IMG/VR virus record: IMGVR_UViG_3300042348_001285
From: a virus
Lineage: Duplodnaviria > Heunggongvirae > Uroviricota > Caudoviricetes
Length of the DNA: 64,000 nucleotides
Direction: 5' to 3' (one strand)
Below, piece after piece: positions 9,129 through 21,597 of the stretch. The notes under the pieces were generated by a model. The model saw nothing but the letters and a program-made list of their open reading frames with translations. It ran no database searches and was not told where the DNA came from. The position numbers were made by a program, and so were the translations under genes. Each line of letters starts with the position of its first letter. The stretch's first letter is position 1.

Positions 9129-12100
9129 TCAGGACAAGATGTTGGTGATCATAGCTCCAGAACCGGTAAGACCAGATGCACCGAGGCCAACCAAGTTAAC
9201 CACACGTTCGATGGTGATTTCAGCACGCACGACACGGCGTTCGCGAATGTAGTACTCCAATTTGTTATCGTAAAGGCTCTTTATCCCTTGCTTCTGCATG
9301 TTTCTATGCAGTTCAGACTATATCATCGTTTTGTAAACAAAACGTCAGGCGCTCGTGGATTGTTCACCTGTTCTAGGCTACTTAATCTAGTCGTTGAACC
9401 TTGCTTTTATCCCTAAAAGCCTTGGCTGCTGATTGCCTTGTGTTTCAAGGAATTCACTCCTGAAACCGTCAGGTTTCCCAGCAATTCACCTAATTTCTTT
9501 TTATGTCAGACCCCAGTAGTTAAGGACGGACAGCGGGTGTTCCTGTGAGTTGATCATTTTTGTTAGCGTAAAGGTTATTTATCCTTCACTTCTTTACATT
9601 TCTGCAAAGATCAGACTATATCTTCTTCCTTGCCTTGTGTTAAAGCTAAGGAGTAGGGCGCTCGTGGAGTTTTCATCTGTTCTAGATTACTAACTCTAGT
9701 CGTTGAACGTTCGTTTTCTCCCGAAAACGCTTCGCTGCTGATTACCATAGCGTCAAACTTTCGTTTGAAGCCGTAGGCTTCCCAGCAATTCACCCCATTG
9801 ATCTGCGGATCAGGCAGATAATTTGACGTTACCGTCAAACCACGCATTCAACTCGTTTGAAAGAAACGATGTTATTAACATACGTGTCGATTATGTTATC
9901 GTAAGGCTCTTTATCCTTACTTCTGCATGTTTCCATGCAGTCCAGACTATATCATCTTATTGTTTCTTTTAGTTCGTATCACTGATTCCCTTATTTTAAC
10001 CTTTTGCTCCTCTGACATCTTGTCATTCCCGTTTTTTCTACGGGTTTCCCAAGCTCTTTTTGCAGCTTCCACTGCTTTGGGGGTCTTGGTTCCAGCTGGA
10101 CCACAGTTATAGGGCTTCCAGCCGGAGGCAATAAGCTTCTTTTTACTTTCACTTTGCTTCTTACGAGTTTCTTCGGAAGCAACAGGGTTTCTTTTGTACT
10201 GGTCTAAGAACCGGGTGGTTCTAATAGTTCCGGTACTATCCCTAAGCGTTCTACACACGGCCCAAGCATCTTTGTAGTGCCGGGTAGCTTTGTACAGAAG
10301 CAAGTGAGCTATAGCATGCTCTCTAGGAGTTAAAGGTACAAGGTTGACAGGGTGGTCCCACTTTTTATAGTGTTTAGGCAATATGTGATGCCTATGGAAC
10401 CCTTTCTTTTTACAAGTCCAGTTTCTTATAGACTTATAGTGAAGAACTAATTTAATATACCGTCTACCATAATGGTTATCGGGTATCCAACAATAAGGAA
10501 GGCTTTCGTGGAGATTTTCTATCAGGGTTAAGAGCATCTCTAGTCGTTGAACGTTTGCAAACAAGTTTTACCCTTTGTTTACACTTCGCTGCTGATTGCC
10601 CAATCTTAAGAAGTTTTTAACTATCACGATTACCCTTTCAGGTTGCGTTGTAGTCTCTTAAGCTCTAAGGGGTTTCCAGCAATTAACCTTCTTTTACTTG
10701 CGCTACACAGTTTCTTGTGAATGAAACAATGTTATTCAACGCAAAAGCAGGAGTCGCAGCATTAGCACCACCCGCAGGCATGATCGAATCAGAAGGGCCG
10801 TTGGGGCTGTAGAACAGGAGGATGCCATTGGCGGGGAAGACAGGCTGCAAGGAGCCGTCGTTGGCCAAATAACGCCCTTCAGCTACGCGCAGGCCACGCT
10901 CAAGACCGAAGTAGCGAGCGATGACATCTGTGTCGATGCTATTGGCGGAGGTGTATTTGATACGATCAAGGATCGCTTCGTTGGTCAGCAAGAGGTCGAA
11001 AACCGAAGTTCCAAGAACAGCGGAGTTCGGACGAATGCCGATCTGGTTGGCAACAGCACGCTTCAGAGTCAGGATGTCCTCAATGGGATTAGAGGTTGCA
11101 CCAGACCATGCGGCAGGGCCAGTGGCTGTGCCATAAGCGGTGTTGAAGGCGGTCCAGGTTGTAAAACCAAGACCAGTTTGTGAGCCAGGAGTCCCATTGT
11201 AGGGCTCGTATGGATTGTAGCTGCCAGTCACTGAAACAGCTTGAGCAACGGTGTACTCGTAGCTGTTCATTCATTATGTTATCGCGAGGGCTCTTTATCC
11301 CTTGCTTCTGCATGTTTCTATGCAGTTCAGACTATATCATCGTTTTGTAAACAAAACGTCAGGCGCTCGTGGATGGGTTATTATTTTCGGTATTCACCAT
11401 CTAGTCGTTGAACCTTTTGACTACAACTCTATTATAGCATAGAGTCCGAAATAGTCAACTTGGCTGCTGATTGCCTTGTGTTTCAGAGAAGCCACTCCTG
11501 AAACCGTCAGGGTTCCCAGCAATTCACCCAATTTTCTAAATGAGATTAATCTCATAGGGCCAATGTGTTTAGCCTAGACATCGCATTGCGAGTCTCGATG
11601 GCGCGTAGCATTTGTTAACTCAGCGGCTCTTTATCCACTGATTCATTACCTTGTCGTTGGTAATGTTCAGACTATATCATAGCATTGAAAAAGTTTTCCA
11701 GTCTTGGTCCTCGTCTGGTATCCACTTATTCCCCTCTGGACAGAGGGATTTAAGGTCTCCATTAAAGGCTTTGACGATATTTGACAAAGTTTGAGAGTTC
11801 GGGGTACCTGTAGCTTTGGCTAGCCTTAGGCAACCGCTACTTCCCACTTTTCTAGGGATAAATTGATAGTGAAAGTAAAGATAGTCTGCAATCTTCCAAA
11901 GGTCTCGGGTTTTACTTGACGCATTGTTATTATCCCAAGGTTTACAGACTAAGGATGGGTTATTTAGTCTCCCTCTCCCCCCGCATCCAACGGCAAACCT
12001 GTAATCTTCAGTAACGTAGGGTAATCCAGTTTTTCCCTTATTGTGGGGAACGGACCTACTGTTCATGAAATTTTTCCAAATACTTGGAAGATTTGTGGCT

Positions 12101-15100
12101 ATGGATGTTTTATTTTTCCCCCTACCAAAATGGTCTAAAAATCTCTTTAAGGAATAAGATTTAAACAGACCTGACTTCACCAGTAAAAGATGAAGTATAA
12201 AGTGTTCCCTAAATGTAACCCCAACCGTCCAAATTACCAAATGGCTTCTCCACCCATCCGGCCAAATTTCTTTGGGTACAGGGTGATGGCACTCATATTG
12301 TTCTGGAAGTTGGCATCTTTTCTCAAATTTGTCGATTAAACTCCAATACCACTTTTCATATTTATTATGATAGTGGCACTCAATGCCCCGGGCGCTCGTG
12401 GATGGGTTATTATTTTCGGTATTCACCATCTAGTCGTTGAACCTTTTGACTACATTCCCATTATAGCATGGGGACCGAAATAGTCAACTTGGCTGCTGAT
12501 TGCCCACGCGGGGGTTCCAGCAATTCACCCGGTTTATAGTGGACCTACGCTGCGATCGAAATCGTCCGTAAAAAATAATCCACTTGTGCAGGCAAAATGT
12601 TGTTACCGTACGGGCTCTTTATCCCATACTTCTCCATGTTTCCATGGAGTTCAGACTATATCTTTGCCCCACCGTTAAGCACGGTAAGACATCAGGCGCT
12701 CGTGGAGTTTTCATCTGTTCTAGATTACTAACTCTAGTCGTTGGACCTTGCTTTTATCCCTAAAAGCCTTGGCTGCTGATTGCCTCTTTTGCGTAGCAAA
12801 AGTAAGGTGTCCCAGCAATTCACCCAATTTTTAGTGACCTTTGTCACAAGGAAGGCCCTTACAACCTTCCCCTGCGTTTTCAATAACCTCTTCCAAGGTT
12901 GTTATCACAAAGGCTCTTTATCCTTTGCTTCTGTAAATTTACCATCTTTACAGTTCAGACTATATCACCGTCTATACCCTCCTATAAAGGTTAGTCAGAC
13001 GTAAGGCGCTCGTGGAGTTTTCATCTGTTCTAGATTACTAACTCTAGTCGTTGAACGTTCGTTTTCTCCCGAAAACGCTTCGCTGCTGATTGGCCATTAA
13101 GTTGGAGGCTTTCCAGCAATTCACCCTATTATTCTTACCGCGCTAACTAGGCAACGGCAAGGCCCAAAGATTTAGGCAATTCCCATGCGACCACTTCCTG
13201 CTCCAGAGCGTAGGGCTCAGAGTCGTAACGGCTTTGGACGTAGGGGATGTTTGTCATTTGTTATCGCAAAGGCTCTTTATCCCTTGCTTCTACATGTTTC
13301 CATGTAGGTCAGACTATATCTTTGCCTTACATTCTTATGTAAGACATCAGGCGCTCGTGGAGTTTTCATCTGTTCTAGATTACTAACTCTAGTCGTTGAA
13401 CCTTGCTTTTATCCCTAAAAGCCTTGGCTGCTGATTACCATAGCATCAAACTTTCGTTTGAAGCCGTAGGCTTCCCAGCAATTCACCCAATTTATTTACG
13501 GCACAAACTAATTACCGTAAGCACGACGGAAGTCGTTAATAGCAACACCATGTTATCGTAGAGACTCTTTATTCCCTACCTCTGCATGTTTCTATGCAGT
13601 TCAGACTATATCATCGTTTTGTAAACAAAACGTCGGGCGCTCGTGGACGAGTTATTGTTGTCGAAACTCATCGTCTAGTCGTTGAACCTTTCCACTACAG
13701 AAATCATAGTGATTCCTCGACGCAGTAGACTTGGCTGCTGATTTCCCTCGCCTTTACGTTAGGGGTTCCCAGCAATTCACCCAATTTTACAACAGCAAGC
13801 TATTTACTGTTCCTTACCGAATCTCAATATTCTACCAGCTCGGGTAGGTGTGTCCACAACTGGTGCGATAAACACTTGTTACCGTGAGAGAATTTATCAC
13901 TCACTTCTTACAGTTTCCTGTAAGTTCAGACTATATCATCATCTTCCTTAAACGTTTTAACAACGGTTTTTAGAGATTGCCAAGTGTTACCTAATTTTGT
14001 TATCCTATGGAGCCTTCTGGCACCACACTTTCCGTTTTCTGCCCAGGCTCTATGCAAGACATCTAAGTTAGACCAAACTTCTTTATCTGCGCGAGGGTTA
14101 TTAGCCCCCGTTCGATCTCTGTCTGGGTTATTAGCTGCTTGTATTGCAAACTGGATGGTAGGATTACTTATGGCTCTGTCTCTAAGTTTTTGTTTTGACT
14201 CTTCACTCCAAGCCCTATTTTTACATCTCTCTGCGCGAGCAGTTCTTTCTTCGTCAGACATTGGGACTTTCCTGGGCCTAGCTTTTCCTTTATTGGACTT
14301 GCTAATTTTGACTTTAGTTTCTTCGGAGTGCCCGTGGTGAGCCACCTTTTCGTAAACCCGTGAGTTCTTTGAAGACTTTTTGAAAGAGTTTATAGCTTTA
14401 CCCAGTTTCTTCACGGAACTGAAAGCTAAAGCTAATAAACAATGGGATATATAGTGCTCTCTGTAGGTAAGTTTAACTAGGTTGGCTTCATCGTTTCCAC
14501 CCTTCATGCACTTGGGCACTATGTGGTGAATATGGAAACCACCCTCTTTGACCAAACCTCTAGAGGGGCGAGAGTTAATAAACTTTACATACCGTTGGTA
14601 ATGTAAGGGAGAGTCGGGCGCTCGTGGAAAGATTATTCTTGGGTCAGTCACTTTCTAGTCGTTGAACCTTTTTACTCATTGTTACCCCTATTATATCGGG
14701 TAACTGCCCAAAGTAAACTCGGCTGCTGATTGCCTTGTGTTCCAGAAAAGTAGATTCTGAAACCGTCAGGTATCCCAGCAATTCACCCGATTTTCAATCA
14801 GAGTTGCCTCTGAAGGGAACCTTATCGATTCGCAATGTTGGTAGACGGTAGCATGAAACCTTGCGCGAGGGTGGTGAGACATTTGTTAACGTAGAGGCTC
14901 TTTATCCCCTACCTCTCTTTGTTTCCAAAGAGTTCAGACTATATCACCGTTTTGTAAACAAAACGCCCGGCGCTCGTGGAGTTTTCATCTGTTCTAGATT
15001 ACTAACTCTAGTCGTTGAACCTTGCTTTTATCCCTAAAAGCCTTGGCTGCTGATTACCATAGCGTCAAACTTTCGTTTGAAGCCGTAGGCTTCCCAGCAA

Positions 15101-15733
15101 TTCACCGGATTTTCTTTGTTAAAAACAAAGCCACTCCTTTAAATGGGCAATATGTTATCGCAAAGGCTCTTTATCCCTTGCTTCTACATGTTTCCATGTA
15201 GGCCAGACTATATCATCATCCTTTAACTCCCATGCTGAGGAGTCAAGGAGCTGGGCGCTCGTGGATTGTTCACCTGTTCTAGGCTACTTAATCTAGTCGT
15301 TGAACGTTCCGTCAATCCCTTGACGGCTTCGCTGCTGATTGCCTCTTTTGCGTAGCAAAAGTAAGGTGTCCCAGCAATTCACCCAGTTTTCTGCCATCAT
15401 TAAAATGACAGGGACCCTAATTAATCCACACCTGCGTAGGTCTGTTGTAGCATTATGTTATCGTAAAGGCTCTTTATCCTTCACTTCTTTACATTTCTGC
15501 AAAGATCAGACTATATCATCATCTTTGCCTAGGCAAAGAGTCGGGCGCTCGTGTCAGCTTCATTACTGTTCTAGTAGTATGCTGTTAGTCGTTGGACCTT
15601 GCTTTTATCCCTAAAAGCCTTGGCTGCTGATTACCATAGCATCAAACTTTCGTTTGAAGCCGTAGGGTTCCCAGCAATTCACCCAATTTTCATCCCAAGG
15701 TTACCCTTGAGCGGAACCGCCATGATTCATCAT
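9129..15733 (-). CDS. Major capsid protein, 351 aa, 14 exons interrupted by 13 group I introns
   Basis: Exons in transcription order: 15733-15725, 15450-15424, 15147-15143, 14879-14828, 13872-13806, 13545-13514, 13254-13174, 12893-12864, 12592-12578, 11608-11571, 11271-10739, 9887-9882, 9554-9523, 9257-9129. They sum to 1056 nt (352 codons, no internal stop): MMNLQQTYAGVDPILTTLAQGFMLPSTNIANFIAPVVDTPTRAGRILRFGKEQFAINDFRRAYGTNIPYVQSRYDSEPYALEQEVVAWELPEEVIENAGEGPAQVDLRAIETRNAMSRLMNSYE...ATPAFAYTYQLTGTPAVRPEYYIRERRVVRAEITIERVVNLVGLGASGLTGSGAMITNILS. It follows the protease and decoration genes, and its size fits a capsid protein. Family call by resemblance and position, not by search. Confidence 0.9.
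9258..9522 (-). mobile_element. Group I intron 13 (265 nt, no ORF)
   Basis: P/Q/R/S present. P1 CCU/GGG; P10 AGUA/UACU. Splicing restores AVRP|EYY. Confidence 0.88.
9555..9881 (-). mobile_element. Group I intron 12 (327 nt, no ORF)
   Basis: P/Q/R/S present. P1 CACGU/GCGUG uses the 6-nt exon; P10 UCAACUC/GAGUUGA. Confidence 0.92.
9888..10738 (-). mobile_element. Group I intron 11 (851 nt) with HNH ORF in P8
   Basis: P/Q/R/S present. P1 UUGCGU/GCGCAA; P10 ACAC/GUGU. Confidence 0.92.
9947..10537 (-). CDS. Intron-encoded HNH homing endonuclease with NUMOD3-like repeats
   Basis: FHRHHILPKHYKKWDHPVNLVPLTPREHAIAHLLL, SEETRKKQSES and MSEEQKVKIRES. Likely start is ATG 10537 just after R (the track starts at 10564). 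Confidence 0.85.
   Translation of the reverse strand: MLLTLIENLHESLPYCWIPDNHYGRRYIKLVLHYKSIRNWTCKKKGFHRHHILPKHYKKWDHPVNLVPLTPREHAIAHLLLYKATRHYKDAWAVCRTLRDSTGTIRTTRFLDQYKRNPVASEETRKKQSESKKKLIASGWKPYNCGPAGTKTPKAVEAAKRAWETRRKNGNDKMSEEQKVKIRESVIRTKRNNKMI
11272..11570 (-). mobile_element. Group I intron 10 (299 nt, no ORF)
   Basis: P/Q/R/S present. P1 GGCU/GGCC; P10 AAUG/CAUU. Confidence 0.9.
11609..12577 (-). mobile_element. Group I intron 9 (969 nt) with HNH ORF in P8
   Basis: P/Q/R/S present. P1 GUGGAU/GUCCAC; P10 CUACGC/GCGUAG. Confidence 0.92.
11677..12429 (-). CDS. Intron-encoded HNH-like homing endonuclease
   Basis: YECHHPVPKEIW...VTFREHFILHLLL (HNH-like). The C-terminal segment resembles that of the intron 4 ORF. 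ATG immediately follows the R element. Confidence 0.8.
   Translation of the reverse strand: MVNTENNNPSTSARGIECHYHNKYEKWYWSLIDKFEKRCQLPEQYECHHPVPKEIWPDGWRSHLVIWTVGVTFREHFILHLLLVKSGLFKSYSLKRFLDHFGRGKNKTSIATNLPSIWKNFMNSRSVPHNKGKTGLPYVTEDYRFAVGCGGRGRLNNPSLVCKPWDNNNASSKTRDLWKIADYLYFHYQFIPRKVGSSGCLRLAKATGTPNSQTLSNIVKAFNGDLKSLCPEGNKWIPDEDQDWKTFSML
12593..12863 (-). mobile_element. Group I intron 8 (271 nt, no ORF)
   Basis: P/Q/R/S present. P1 GGAAGGU/GCCUUCC; P10 CCU/AGG. Confidence 0.92.
12894..13173 (-). mobile_element. Group I intron 7 (280 nt, no ORF)
   Basis: P/Q/R/S present. P1 GCCU/GGGC; P10 GAAGA/UCUUU. Confidence 0.9.
13255..13513 (-). mobile_element. Group I intron 6 (259 nt, no ORF)
   Basis: P/Q/R/S present. 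P1 UUACGGU/GCCGUAA; P10 ACAAAC/GUUUGU. Confidence 0.92.
13546..13805 (-). mobile_element. Group I intron 5 (260 nt, no ORF)
   Basis: P/Q/R/S present. P1 AACAGU/GCUGUU; P10 GCUA/UAGC. Confidence 0.9.
13873..14827 (-). mobile_element. Group I intron 4 (955 nt) with HNH ORF in P8
   Basis: P/Q/R/S present. P1 GAAU/GUUC; P10 UUUAUCG/CGAUAAG. Confidence 0.9.
13926..14651 (-). CDS. Intron-encoded HNH homing endonuclease with NUMOD3-like motif
   Basis: FHIHHIVPKCMKGGNDEANLVKLTYREHYISH (HNH) and HSEETKVKISKSNKGK (NUMOD3-like). The stop codon lies in the intron S element. Confidence 0.88.
   Translation of the reverse strand: MTDPRIIFPRAPDSPLHYQRYVKFINSRPSRGLVKEGGFHIHHIVPKCMKGGNDEANLVKLTYREHYISHCLLALAFSSVKKLGKAINSFKKSSKNSRVYEKVAHHGHSEETKVKISKSNKGKARPRKVPMSDEERTARAERCKNRAWSEESKQKLRDRAISNPTIQFAIQAANNPDRDRTGANNPRADKEVWSNLDVLHRAWAENGKCGARRLHRITKLGNTWQSLKTVVKTFKEDDDIV
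14880..15142 (-). mobile_element. Group I intron 3 (263 nt, no ORF)
   Basis: P/Q/R/S present. P1 CCAU/GUGG uses the 5-nt exon; P10 UCU/GGA. Confidence 0.88.
15148..15423 (-). mobile_element. Group I intron 2 (276 nt, no ORF)
   Basis: P/Q/R/S present. P1 GGAU/GUCC; P10 CC/GG; terminal G. Confidence 0.88.
15451..15724 (-). mobile_element. Group I intron 1 (274 nt, no ORF)
   Basis: Core elements on the minus strand: P GAATTGCTGGGA, Q AATCAGCAG, R GTCCAACGACTA, S GATATAGTC. Terminal G. P1 is exon GAAU with IGS GUUC. P10 is weak. Confidence 0.85.
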
Positions 15734-15854
15734 AATAGATGATTTCCTTTTCTAGGTTGACTTCAAAGATTGCGTTGGCAATCTAACCCAAAAGTCCGAA
15801 AACTTCGGGGTCACTGTAGTTATACCCACACTTTGCTAATGGAAGCCCAACCAT

Positions 15855-15880
15855 AAAAAAGGAGCCCCTTTCGGAGCCCC
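15855..15880 (-). terminator. Rho-independent terminator between decoration gene and capsid gene
   Basis: GGGGCTCC-GAAA-GGGGCTCC (8 bp with two G.U pairs) followed by TTTTTT. Confidence 0.75.
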
Positions 15881-19824: not shown

Positions 19825-21597
19825 TTATTTTTTACCCTTGACCTTGTTTTCCATCTCTGATATTATAGAGTCTAATTCTCCATCGGAAATTCCACTTGTG
19901 GATTCGGTCTCATTTGCCTCTTCCTCAGGGAGTTCCCCCGGTTCGGATTCCCCTGGTTCTTCAGCCAATGCAGAGTCTAACTCGGATAGTAAGGAGTCTA
20001 ACTCTTTGTTGGCTTTGCTATTTTTCTTTTTTGGTTGCTTTTCTACAGGGGGTTGCTTTGTTGGAGTTTCTTCATTCGGAGTCATCTCATCCGGGGTTTC
20101 TTCAGTTGGGGTCACCTCAGCCGGGGCCATCTCATCCAGGGTTTCTTCAGTCGGGGTCGTATCATCCGGGGTTTCTTCACCCTGAATTCCCTCATCCGGG
20201 GCCCCTTCATCTGGGGCCACCTCATCCGGAGTCATCTCAGTGGTAGATCCAAGGGGCCCTTCAGCATCCCCACCCGAACCATCTTCTGGACCGAAAATCG
20301 ACTCATATAGGTTCTTATCCTTTTCAGGGTCAAACGTAGTTTCACCTTCGCTACCCTGTTGGCCTTCAGCAGATTTGGCCTCATCTTCTAAATCAACTCT
20401 AAAGTGCCTCTCAATCCATTCTCTACGGGGTTTGAAACCATTTTGAATCAATAGGGAAACATCAGCGGGTGTCAGTTGGGACTCCTCAATTCTGAACTCC
20501 CTAGTTAAGGTCGGAGATGCAACATCAGCACCGAAATTTAAATCTACAATCCACCTTACCAAAGTTTGAGTTAGTTGATGACAGATCATTTCTGATATCT
20601 CAGATGCCCTCACCACTCGAACTACGTTAGCAACCATCGACGAAGCCCTGGAACCAGACTCAGCCTGCCCAGCTTCATTTTCACCGCAAATCAGAAGGCT
20701 AATGACTTTATCTAGGTAGTCAATCAAGCCTTTAAACACATCGGGGCTACCTTCAGGGTTAATAAAATCCAATACGAACCCTTCAGGTAAAACCATCGCG
20801 GTCTCTTGGGATAAATTTGAGATCATCCCATAAATATTATCGATTTCGGCTGTTGATGCACTTAGGGGGGCAGTTGCTACGGTAGTCGGGGTTGCATATC
20901 TGTCACCATAAAGGACATAAGACTCTAATGCCCTCCTCCTAAACTTCACCAGGGGGTATAAAATACGACCAATCGAAGAACCATAGGGATCCCCATTATG
21001 CTGAGTCCAGTACCTATTGATGATGAATTTACGCGCAGGTAGCTCGATACCTTCAAACATCCTGTTGAATGTCAAGCAACGCATTGTAAAACCTGTTTGA
21101 GAATCCTCAGCTTCTTGGAAGACAAATCGGCGCTGGTCTCTAACTCGAACATCAAATGGGATGACACCCCGCTTGGTTTTCTTCCACATTACTTCCGCAA
21201 CACTGAAACCAACAATTAAGGCTTCGGCTAAGCCTTTGAAAATATCGTCTATTGGCAACTCCTCTAAAACTTCTGCTACAAAGTCCCTGACGGCTAAATC
21301 CCCAGGTTTATCGCTGTATTCCTGAACATACCATGGCCTAGACGTAACTTCCTGGAGCAACTTAGAGTAAGAACCCTGGACTTGTTCATCCAATAGCAAC
21401 CTTTGGTAAGTTGATAATGCGCGATTACCTCCCTTTTGGATTAGTAGGTCGTCATTAGGGCGAACAATGCTGGAACCAGTCCCCGTAAAAGGAGAGCTAG
21501 AACCAAACATGTAAATGGAACTAAGCGCATACGGGTTACTGATGTACGAGCTTATTTCACCGGTTGGGACAGGCGATGTCTTAAATCTTTTGGCCAT
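19825..21597 (-). CDS. Portal protein (DUF935/Mu gp29-like)
   Basis: GLAEALIVGFSVAEVMW, NGDPYGSSIGRILY, YGDRYATP, GSRASSMV and PTLTREF motifs, then an acidic C-terminal repeat tail. Confidence 0.85.
   Translation of the reverse strand: MAKRFKTSPVPTGEISSYISNPYALSSIYMFGSSSPFTGTGSSIVRPNDDLLIQKGGNRALSTYQRLLLDEQVQGSYSKLLQEVTSRPWYVQEYSDKPGDLAVRDFVAEVLEELPIDDIFKGLAEALIVGFSVAEVMWKKTKRGVIPFDVRVRDQRRFVFQEAEDSQTGFTMRCLTFNRMFEGIELPARKFIINRYWTQHNGDPYGSSIGRILYPLVKFRRRALESYVLYGDRYATPTTVATAPLSASTAEIDNIYGMISNLSQETAMVLPEGFVLDFINPEGSPDVFKGLIDYLDKVISLLICGENEAGQAESGSRASSMVANVVRVVRASEISEMICHQLTQTLVRWIVDLNFGADVASPTLTREFRIEESQLTPADVSLLIQNGFKPRREWIERHFRVDLEDEAKSAEGQQGSEGETTFDPEKDKNLYESIFGPEDGSGGDAEGPLGSTTEMTPDEVAPDEGAPDEGIQGEETPDDTTPTEETLDEMAPAEVTPTEETPDEMTPNEETPTKQPPVEKQPKKKNSKANKELDSLLSELDSALAEEPGESEPGELPEEEANETESTSGISDGELDSIISEMENKVKGKK
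20060..20240 (-). repeat. Imperfect 15-nt (5-aa) tandem repeats in the portal C-terminus
   Basis: TPDEV/APDEG/APDEG/TPDDT/TPTEE/TLDEM/TPTEE/TPDEM/TPNEE. Boundaries approximate. Confidence 0.7.

Follow-up and report, generated by a model that had tools for sequence, protein, structure and literature searches.

Thirteen related group I introns with interchanging peripheral hairpins in the major capsid protein gene of an uncultured freshwater cyanophage

According to published surveys, phage genes contain between one and three introns each (PMC11878797), and Twort orf142, as far as it is cited there, is interrupted by three introns that are related to each other (Landthaler & Shub 1999, as cited in PMC11878797). 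The major capsid gene of Faustovirus E12, which spans 17 kb and 13 exons, was called the first viral gene with 12 introns (PMC6247863), and giant gut "Jug" and crAss-like phages carry approximately 18 introns per 360-400-kb genome, with genes in 2-3 pieces (PMC12880540). Gene conversion and mosaicism have been described for fungal mitochondrial group I introns (PMC4059233), and spread by reverse splicing has been proposed for those of fungal rDNA (PMC1299323). Here we analyse a 64,000-nucleotide (nt) stretch of DNA (IMG/VR record IMGVR_UViG_3300042348_001285, hereafter the window) from an uncultured giant freshwater cyanophage, in which the major capsid protein gene is divided by 13 introns. 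With high confidence, the best explanation of this locus is a swarm of introns of one family, consisting of three-layered copies that exchange hairpins, colonising one essential capsid gene. Group I introns, homing endonucleases, and gene conversion are each already known, and the capsid swarm is not a new category.

The largest uninterrupted open reading frame (ORF) of the locus is a Phage_cap_E fragment with 59% identity to the capsid protein of Synechococcus phage S-CBWM1. Exon ends were set using homology to the S-CBWM1 protein together with the rule that the 5' exon ends in U and the intron ends in G. Excision of the 13 introns yields a single 1,056-nt ORF of 351 amino acids (aa), colinear with the S-CBWM1 capsid protein. 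The 14 exons measure 5 to 533 nt, and those across the first 356 nt of the coding sequence (CDS) measure 5-81 nt. The intron block occupies positions 9258-15724 of the minus strand, 15724 being the first base of intron 1 and 9258 the last base of intron 13. The gene and its introns, with insertion sites given as CDS positions and a stroke marking the splice site, are as follows.

9129..15733, minus strand: major capsid protein gene, lambda-gpE / Pfam Phage_cap_E type; 14 exons, 13 introns; CDS 1,056 nt / 351 aa
15451..15724, minus strand: intron 1, site 9, 274 nt; P5 alpha, P6 x; guide GGTTC against exon GAAT/C
15148..15423, minus strand: intron 2, site 36, 276 nt; P5 beta, P7.1 q
14880..15142, minus strand: intron 3, site 41, 263 nt; P5 alpha, P6 x, P7.1 p, small P8
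13873..14827, minus strand: intron 4, site 93, 955 nt; gamma-like P5, endonuclease ORF in P8
13546..13805, minus strand: intron 5, site 160, 260 nt; modules mostly unique, small P8 shared
13255..13513, minus strand: intron 6, site 192, 259 nt; P5 alpha, P6 x, P7.1 p; 95-nt exact run in common with intron 3
12894..13173, minus strand: intron 7, site 273, 280 nt; P6 y, P7.1 p
12593..12863, minus strand: intron 8, site 303, 271 nt; P5 beta, P6 x, P7.1 p; P1 exon pairing of 9 base pairs
11609..12577, minus strand: intron 9, site 318, 969 nt; P6 z, P7.1 r, endonuclease ORF
11272..11570, minus strand: intron 10, site 356, 299 nt; P5 gamma, P6 z (compensatory variant), P7.1 r, small P8
9888..10738, minus strand: intron 11, site 889, 851 nt; outlier with a compensated P3 change and an endonuclease ORF
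9555..9881, minus strand: intron 12, site 895, 327 nt; P5 alpha, P6 y, P7.1 p; long P1-P2 segment
9258..9522, minus strand: intron 13, site 927, 265 nt; P5 gamma, P6 x, P7.1 q, small P8

Judged by sequence and predicted structure, the 13 elements are group I introns of a common phage type with putative extra P7.1/P7.2 helices, and they would be expected to splice by self-splicing chemistry. Matches to Rfam model RF00028 in the window lie on the minus strand only, between positions 9258 and 15794. Eleven of the 13 introns reach the gathering score of 50 bits (range 50-93.7, nine at 82-94 bits); the remaining two, both of which contain an endonuclease ORF, score 46.8 and 43.3 bits, and all 13 match at E<=1.3e-8. 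Five core anchors are identical or differ by no more than 3 nt in all 13 introns, namely P3/J3-4/P4 (13 nt), P4' (10 nt), J6-7/P7 (14 nt), P3' (11 nt), and J8-7/P7' (11 nt), amounting to approximately 59 nt, and the P7 strands GACTA and TAGTC are complementary. The 5' exon terminates in T and the intron in G in every case. All 13 also have an insertion of 26-29 nt at the P7.1/P7.2 position, between P7 and P3', which folds weakly in isolation. Introns were cut at the five conserved anchors into six variable segments each, and the variable segments each fold separately as a hairpin.

It is the distribution of these hairpins that sets the locus apart. All memberships of P5, P6, P7.1, and P8 blocks listed in the initial annotation, which had been made from the letters of the window, were reproduced by this anchor-based segmentation. 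P5 type alpha is found in introns 1, 3, 6, and 12, beta in 2 and 8, and gamma in 4, 10, and 13 (that of intron 4 being more diverged); P6 type x in introns 1, 3, 6, 8, and 13, y in 7 and 12, and z in 9 and 10; P7.1 type p in introns 3, 6, 7, 8, and 12, q in 2 and 13, and r in 9 and 10; and the small P8 hairpin in introns 3, 5, 10, and 13. Additional types beyond that list are a P8 type b in introns 6 and 8, and P9 hairpins common to introns 1 and 12, to 2 and 6, and to 5, 10, and 13. Shared blocks are mostly 23-38 nt long and exactly identical, with neighbouring blocks of the same intron pair unalignable, and in P5, P6, P7.1, and P8, though not in P9, most module comparisons show either >=95% or <60% identity. 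Chance cannot produce this pattern of sharing. The proposal that only the 5' segment is unique to each intron held for P1-P2, but introns 4, 5, and 11, and parts of introns 7 and 9, are unique in most modules.

Exchange between copies becomes evident when relatives are included. These were taken from 80 IMG/VR loci, whose capsid proteins are 79-99% identical over exon 11 and which are contigs assembled from metagenomes rather than clonal genomes. Among the four closest genomes (the window, L015, L017, and L045), the refined incompatibility is 2-7 for 7 of 10 module pairs and 0 for three, and P6 and P7.1 together give 12 strict four-gamete quartets of exact sequences. Where the capsid proteins of two phages are 98-99% identical over exon 11, their orthologous introns are separated by a few point changes and by the replacement of blocks of 11-49 nt; the replaced blocks mostly correspond to single hairpins, and their alternative versions can in most cases be found verbatim at a different site, whether in the same genome or in another. 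One P6 25-mer is identical at 11 sites, and two other P6 types, as well as P7.1 types p and q, are each found at seven. Recombination between the copies, as initially put forward, is borne out by these quartets and by hairpin replacements with exact donors, and a check for congruent per-module relationships found distances to be uncorrelated except those of P6 with P7.1.

Identical hairpins at different sites might alternatively reflect convergent selection, with a splicing cofactor or tertiary contact demanding those particular sequences, and loop motifs are indeed conserved (P6 NGGGAN, P9 GAAA, and P9.1 GATAAAGAG). The stems, however, vary freely by compensation: 15 distinct 25-nt variants of P6 were found, with 104 of 105 stem pairs kept and compensatory changes at every position, yet entire blocks of 25-38 nt, their stems included, are identical at up to 11 sites. 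Because such free compensatory variation means that function does not require a particular stem sequence, we consider convergence very improbable.

A further possibility is that collapsed-repeat or chimeric misassembly of a repeat-rich region makes the shared blocks, given 13 repeats with identical runs and a 2.2-kb contig (L042) that seemingly joins two introns. Two contigs from other samples, L093 (JGI, 117.8 kb) and L094 (ENA, 84.9 kb; other assembler, final k = 141), nonetheless agree with the window at 100% identity across 6,700 nt, and L015 and L016, which come from different metagenomes, have an identical intron arrangement. All exons are in order, the ORF is intact, and an independent contig corresponds to a relative minus its introns (see below). 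No exact repeat shared by two introns exceeds 95 nt, a length below both that of a typical read and the k of 141, so a collapsed-repeat artefact is untenable, and misassembly, which the initial annotation had named as a potential refuter, can for practical purposes be dismissed.

Contigs of relatives speak to the intron junctions. The predicted spliced CDS aligns gap-free over positions 1-1056 to uninterrupted capsid genes of approximately 25 related contigs (75-78% nt identity), and it is 95% identical at the nt level to contig L014. When the predicted introns are removed from L017 (127 kb, 11 introns), the result equals L014 at 5,745 of 5,745 nt, flanking genes included. The intron-free gene of L014 is found only on contigs of 1.4-5.8 kb (L014, which equals L215, together with L216, L217, and L218), from three JGI samples (3300012770, 3300012772, and 3300012777) and one SRA run (SRR5839259). 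These contigs match L017 minus its 11 introns at 100% identity, and in three of them the first base lies 20-68 nt ahead of the ATG, close to a small hairpin. A literature search on the identifiers of the samples gave no result. L014 is more likely a spliced late transcript assembled from RNA libraries, and less likely an isogenic intron-free DNA allele. Under either reading the match to L017 confirms junctions at nine of the 13 window sites, and at the remaining four the L017 DNA is itself the empty allele. The predicted junctions are real, and the contig comparisons indicate that the introns are probably spliced in vivo. A search of database proteins found no exact counterpart, intron-free or spliced, of the capsid protein encoded in the window.

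The site-93 intron of L017 (7292-7568), which is orthologous to window intron 4 and is also found in L015, L016, and L045, has a divergent 3' tail, with a terminal A instead of G both in the P7' strand and at the intron end. L014 lacks exactly this A-ending segment and the boundary is unambiguous. Absence of the terminal G would be unusual for a group I intron.

Several observations weigh against hairpin exchange among the copies of one gene as set out above, or narrow it. In the window alone, scored as multistate, the refined incompatibility is 0 for every module pair; the initial four-gamete argument, built on beta/non-beta against p/q, had lumped non-homologous states and does not stand. 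A site-order (PHI-type) test on the window alone gave p=2e-4, a value confounded by stem covariation and by aligned non-homologous hairpins. Two different sites share an identical module no more often within one genome than across genomes, and exchange may take place mainly between co-infecting genomes rather than inside one genome. The RNA origin of L014 is itself an interpretation. Finally, the first 420 nt of L042 (2,195 nt) join a site-895-type 5' segment to an intron body that precedes the site-281 3' exon; this probably reflects a chimeric assembly at the end of the contig, and it cautions against trusting every short metagenomic contig.

That all window module pairs fit a single tree would also be expected if the introns had duplicated in a tree-like manner only, with hairpins replaced or diverging independently and copies never exchanging. 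Such a history needs the full turnover of one hairpin beside 50-95 identical adjacent nt. It is contradicted by the 12 P6 and P7.1 quartets, by orthologue blocks with exact copies at other sites, and by the lack of correlation between per-module distances, and we give it very little credence. Intragenomic homogenisation (concerted evolution) was likewise considered and rejected, identical modules within a genome not being in excess over those between genomes. Identical P6 hairpins were found in 39% of orthologue comparisons versus 20% for introns at different sites. Since cross-site sharing is equal within and between genomes, the hairpins behave as alleles of a population-wide pool rather than as products of homogenisation within one genome. 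Of the exchange originally termed intragenic, therefore, the swapping of hairpins between paralogues is real, but strictly intragenomic conversion is unsupported.

In contrast to the shared hairpins, the P1-P2 segment is unique to each intron, with identity below 60% in 76 of 78 pairs. A guide G lies opposite the last exon T (U.G wobble) in 13 of 13 introns, and 4-9 exon nt are paired, even where exons measure 5 or 6 nt. Cognate guides outperform permuted assignments (permutation test; P1 p=1e-5, P10 p=0.0014), which, together with the five near-invariant core blocks, upholds the view of a single core equipped with site-matched guides. Between phages, P1-P2 at a given site is conserved and co-varies with the exon; orthologues show compensatory exon-guide changes in P1 at sites 303 and 281 and in P10 at sites 93 and 281. 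At site 303, the window exon GGGGAAGGT pairs with guide GGCCTTCC and the L022 exon GCGAGGGT with GCTCTTGC; at site 93, the 3' exon has changed from C to T and the P10 guide, correspondingly, from G to A. Covariation of this kind is the signature expected of selection on splicing. Two of the paired exons are exceptionally short.

15143..15147, minus strand: micro-exon 3, 5 nt (CCCAT), separating introns 2 and 3
9882..9887, minus strand: micro-exon 12, 6 nt (ACACGT), separating introns 11 and 12

As these 5- and 6-nt exons each serve two ribozymes, ordered splicing is implied. Introns 1 and 4 have the same guide (GGTTC) and the same target (GAAT/C), and introns 2 and 9 both follow GTGGAT. Cross-pairing between introns with a common guide or target could lead to exon skipping.

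Relatives, searched with a profile of the ten short introns of the window, carry 0 to 13 introns per capsid gene, all within the gene and on its strand. The family is confined to the capsid gene in the window and, in the 80 loci, within 10 kb of that gene. A spliced-mapping script, whose output matches the manual annotation of the window, gave 16 well-supported CDS sites (9, 36, 41, 75, 93, 150, 160, 192, 273, 281, 303, 318, 356, 889, 895, and 927); doubtful donors where exons diverge (L015 "106"/"883", L027-type "80/93", and several L052 sites) were left out or read by hand. Every window site is empty in some close relative, and the presence of an endonuclease ORF also varies at a given site. 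The sites are strongly clustered, 13 of the 16 falling within the opening 356 nt of the CDS and the other three within its final 170 nt; the 533-nt exon 11 holds no well-supported site, only doubtful placements in L052. Site 75, which is not used in the window, holds a more divergent intron subfamily in one subclade (L031:8275-8500, L027-type loci, and L043), the core variants of which include GGTTCAGAGACTA and GATAAGATAGTCC. A complete 279-kb relative with terminal repeats has the capsid gene in one copy only, and all introns must therefore be removed for capsid building. In the same relative, three more group I introns are clustered in a second gene (L095, G002:C1:18500-23500; Rfam hits 20378-21454), one resembling window intron 11 and two of other types without capsid-swarm hairpins.

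Three of the window introns contain endonuclease ORFs.

13926..14651, minus strand: putative HNH-type homing endonuclease ORF, 241 aa, in intron 4; NUMOD3; PHROG 655 at 4.9e-32
11677..12429, minus strand: homing endonuclease ORF, 250 aa, in intron 9; PHROG family match
9947..10564, minus strand: homing endonuclease ORF, up to 205 aa, in intron 11; PHROG 655 at 1.1e-18

PHROG 655 ("homing endonuclease") matches all three ORFs (4.9e-32, 1.1e-18, and 6.3e-7) and PHROG 12434 ("HNH endonuclease") two of the three. An HH..P...N...EH..H pattern is visible in the endonuclease ORFs; none has a Pfam HNH match, NUMOD3 was found in one, and a PDB sequence search, made with the intron 4 endonuclease only, returned no meaningful match. 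Each ORF has its start in P7.1 (in one call, at a TTG in P6), crosses the P3' core, and continues into P8. The encoded endonucleases group according to the site of insertion, and between sites their identity is at most 64%, with the exception of one pair that includes L052, whose mapping is unreliable. The idea that endonucleases cut the shared core, with breaks in copies lacking an ORF then driving the shuffling, was rejected on the basis of this site-wise clustering and low cross-site identity. Only the N-terminal 12-13 residues are common across sites (MVNTENNNPSTSA / MSFDNNNSSTSA, or MTDPRI.FPRAP, in ORFs 11677-12429 and 13926-14651 and relatives). Since P7.1 and the invariant P3' strand together encode these residues, a hairpin swap also exchanges endonuclease N-termini between orthologues.

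A search for the same cores elsewhere had been recommended in the initial annotation. The exact core pattern (three anchors with their spacing) was found in >119 viral stretches, and 70 of the 80 examined have no related capsid gene; BLAST shows the core to resemble introns of Bacillus (I-BasI hosts), Clostridium, Streptococcus, Staphylococcus, and other phages. Its presence in so many unrelated phages means that the core is the consensus of a widespread intron type and on its own gives no proof of recent common origin. The cores do occur widely, then, but only the hairpin pool is private to the capsid gene: compared with the 70 other core-holding contigs, and with the exception of two short P5 cores, the hairpin types are confined to loci with this gene.

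The breadth of the core raises the possibility that there was no intragenic spread, the sites having been colonised separately from outside and likeness having arisen later by conversion. An exact core in at least 70 other viral contigs and in introns of Firmicutes phages fits such a history, as do the site-specific endonucleases and the lack of significant target sharing between sites (tetramers and hexamers; p=0.13 for 16 sites, p=0.34 for the window's 13 sites). It is opposed by the private hairpin pool, by confinement of the family to the capsid gene, and by hidden Markov model (HMM) scores, capsid-gene copies having a median of 216 bits among themselves versus 93 bits for outside introns. 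It is further opposed by two pairs of sites: sites 9 and 93 have a common target (GAAT/C), a common guide (GGTTCC), and, in some genomes, an identical P2, and sites 889 and 895, which are 6 bases apart, have a 19-nt similarity of their 5' segments and a common target CGT. Sites 36 and 318 have the exon hexamer GTGGAT in common. We consider separate colonisation quite unlikely. The three site pairs would fit transposition guided by short P1 pairing, comparable to the spread by reverse splicing proposed elsewhere (PMC1299323), and guide-directed hopping is the mode of spread that they suggest. The description of the family as retargetable or programmable is thus upheld by guide-site covariation and by the two site pairs with target and guide homology, but not by overall target sharing or by the endonucleases, which are site-specific.

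Taken together, the swarm reading may be summarised as a proposed mechanism. One family would have colonised a single essential gene, that of the major capsid protein, in a clade of giant freshwater cyanophages, at no fewer than 16 sites. Each copy consists of a site-specific 5' segment (P1, P10 guide, and P2), the core of about 59 nt, and self-contained P5, P6, P7.1, P8, and P9 hairpins. Short-patch recombination or gene conversion, acting on the DNA, would move hairpins from one paralogous copy to another, with the invariant core blocks and the hairpins already in common supplying the homology. Crossovers between copies would delete essential exons and be purged, swaps that split a stem would be selected against, and the survivors would be whole-hairpin mosaics drawn from a pool common to the phage population. 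Site-specific, putative HNH endonuclease genes in P8 of three copies would explain the presence/absence polymorphism and the transfer of blocks between co-infecting phages. Conversion at the DNA level, the filter acting on whole hairpins, and the seeding of new sites are presumed steps of this mechanism.

A more ambitious reading combines near-free reassortment, guide-directed seeding, and a benefit to the phage into a combinatorial ribozyme system at the level of the population; taken jointly, these three elements are doubtful. Under it, hairpin alleles may reassort almost freely over at least 16 sites, rather than belonging to 13 passive parasites, and new sites may be seeded by guide-directed hops to short targets, as at 9/93 and 889/895. 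The array may be kept for endonuclease-mediated exclusion of intron-free competitors during co-infection. An alternative benefit may be that exons of 5-81 nt in the first 356 nt of the CDS are too short for intact CRISPR protospacers.

ORFs around the introns are phage structural genes, encoding a Mu-like protease/scaffold, a gp19-like tail tube, and a 1,026-aa baseplate-J-like protein, and gene callers overlook the capsid gene between them entirely. A strong terminator-like hairpin follows the upstream gene (window 15855-15880), and a second small hairpin (15796-15808) lies approximately 65 nt before the capsid start codon, near the starts of contigs L216 and L217.

In the literature searched, neither a phage gene carrying 13 group I introns nor a reassortment of hairpins between paralogous intron copies was reported, and papers on cyanophage PA-SR01 are not concerned with capsid-gene introns. 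Relative to the searchable literature, what is new is the density (13 group I introns in one bacteriophage gene), the population series of near-identical phages with 0 to 13 copies at 16 or more sites of one 1-kb gene, and the trading of whole peripheral hairpins between ribozyme copies that keep their own guide. With dozens of naturally tested chimeras, the locus is a natural data set on which peripheral domains of group I introns are interchangeable, and it bears on the co-evolution of guides and targets and on the arrival of introns at new sites. The micro-exons and the repeated guides (introns 1 and 4 both target GAAT) offer testable questions on splicing order and exon skipping.

Among described systems, introns of the Bacillus SPO1/Bastille-type DNA polymerase (I-HmuI/I-BasI), the Streptococcus thermophilus lysin, and the Twort-like Staphylococcus phages are 70-80% identical over a core of approximately 180 nt, and likewise have an insertion at the P7.1/P7.2 position, an HNH-type ORF in P8 (putative in the capsid introns), and essential phage host genes. 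They differ in having one to three introns (PMC11878797), compared with 13 in a 1-kb gene with 5-6-nt exons and a private hairpin pool. Twort orf142, as presented in the citing survey, is similar in having several similar group I introns per gene, which suggests spread within the gene, and differs in having three as opposed to 13 (at least 16 sites in the clade). Population-level reassortment of hairpins is reportedly not described for orf142. Faustovirus E12 also has a fragmented viral capsid gene, in which some introns are group I with homing endonucleases (PMC6247863); it is, however, a eukaryotic giant virus in which 5 of 12 introns are group I and not of one family, whereas all 13 introns of the cyanophage gene belong to one family in a bacteriophage. 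"Jug" and crAss-like phages similarly contain many small group I introns and HNH endonucleases in essential genes, and their splicing is backed by metatranscriptome reads, whereas the capsid-gene swarm places 13 introns in a single gene. Fungal introns resemble the swarm in their presence/absence polymorphism, their conversion mosaics, and their proposed spread by short guide-exon pairing. The fungal cases, however, involve orthologues of different species or distant rDNA sites, whereas in the cyanophage capsid gene the exchange is among paralogues dozens of nt apart, on the time scale of strain divergence.

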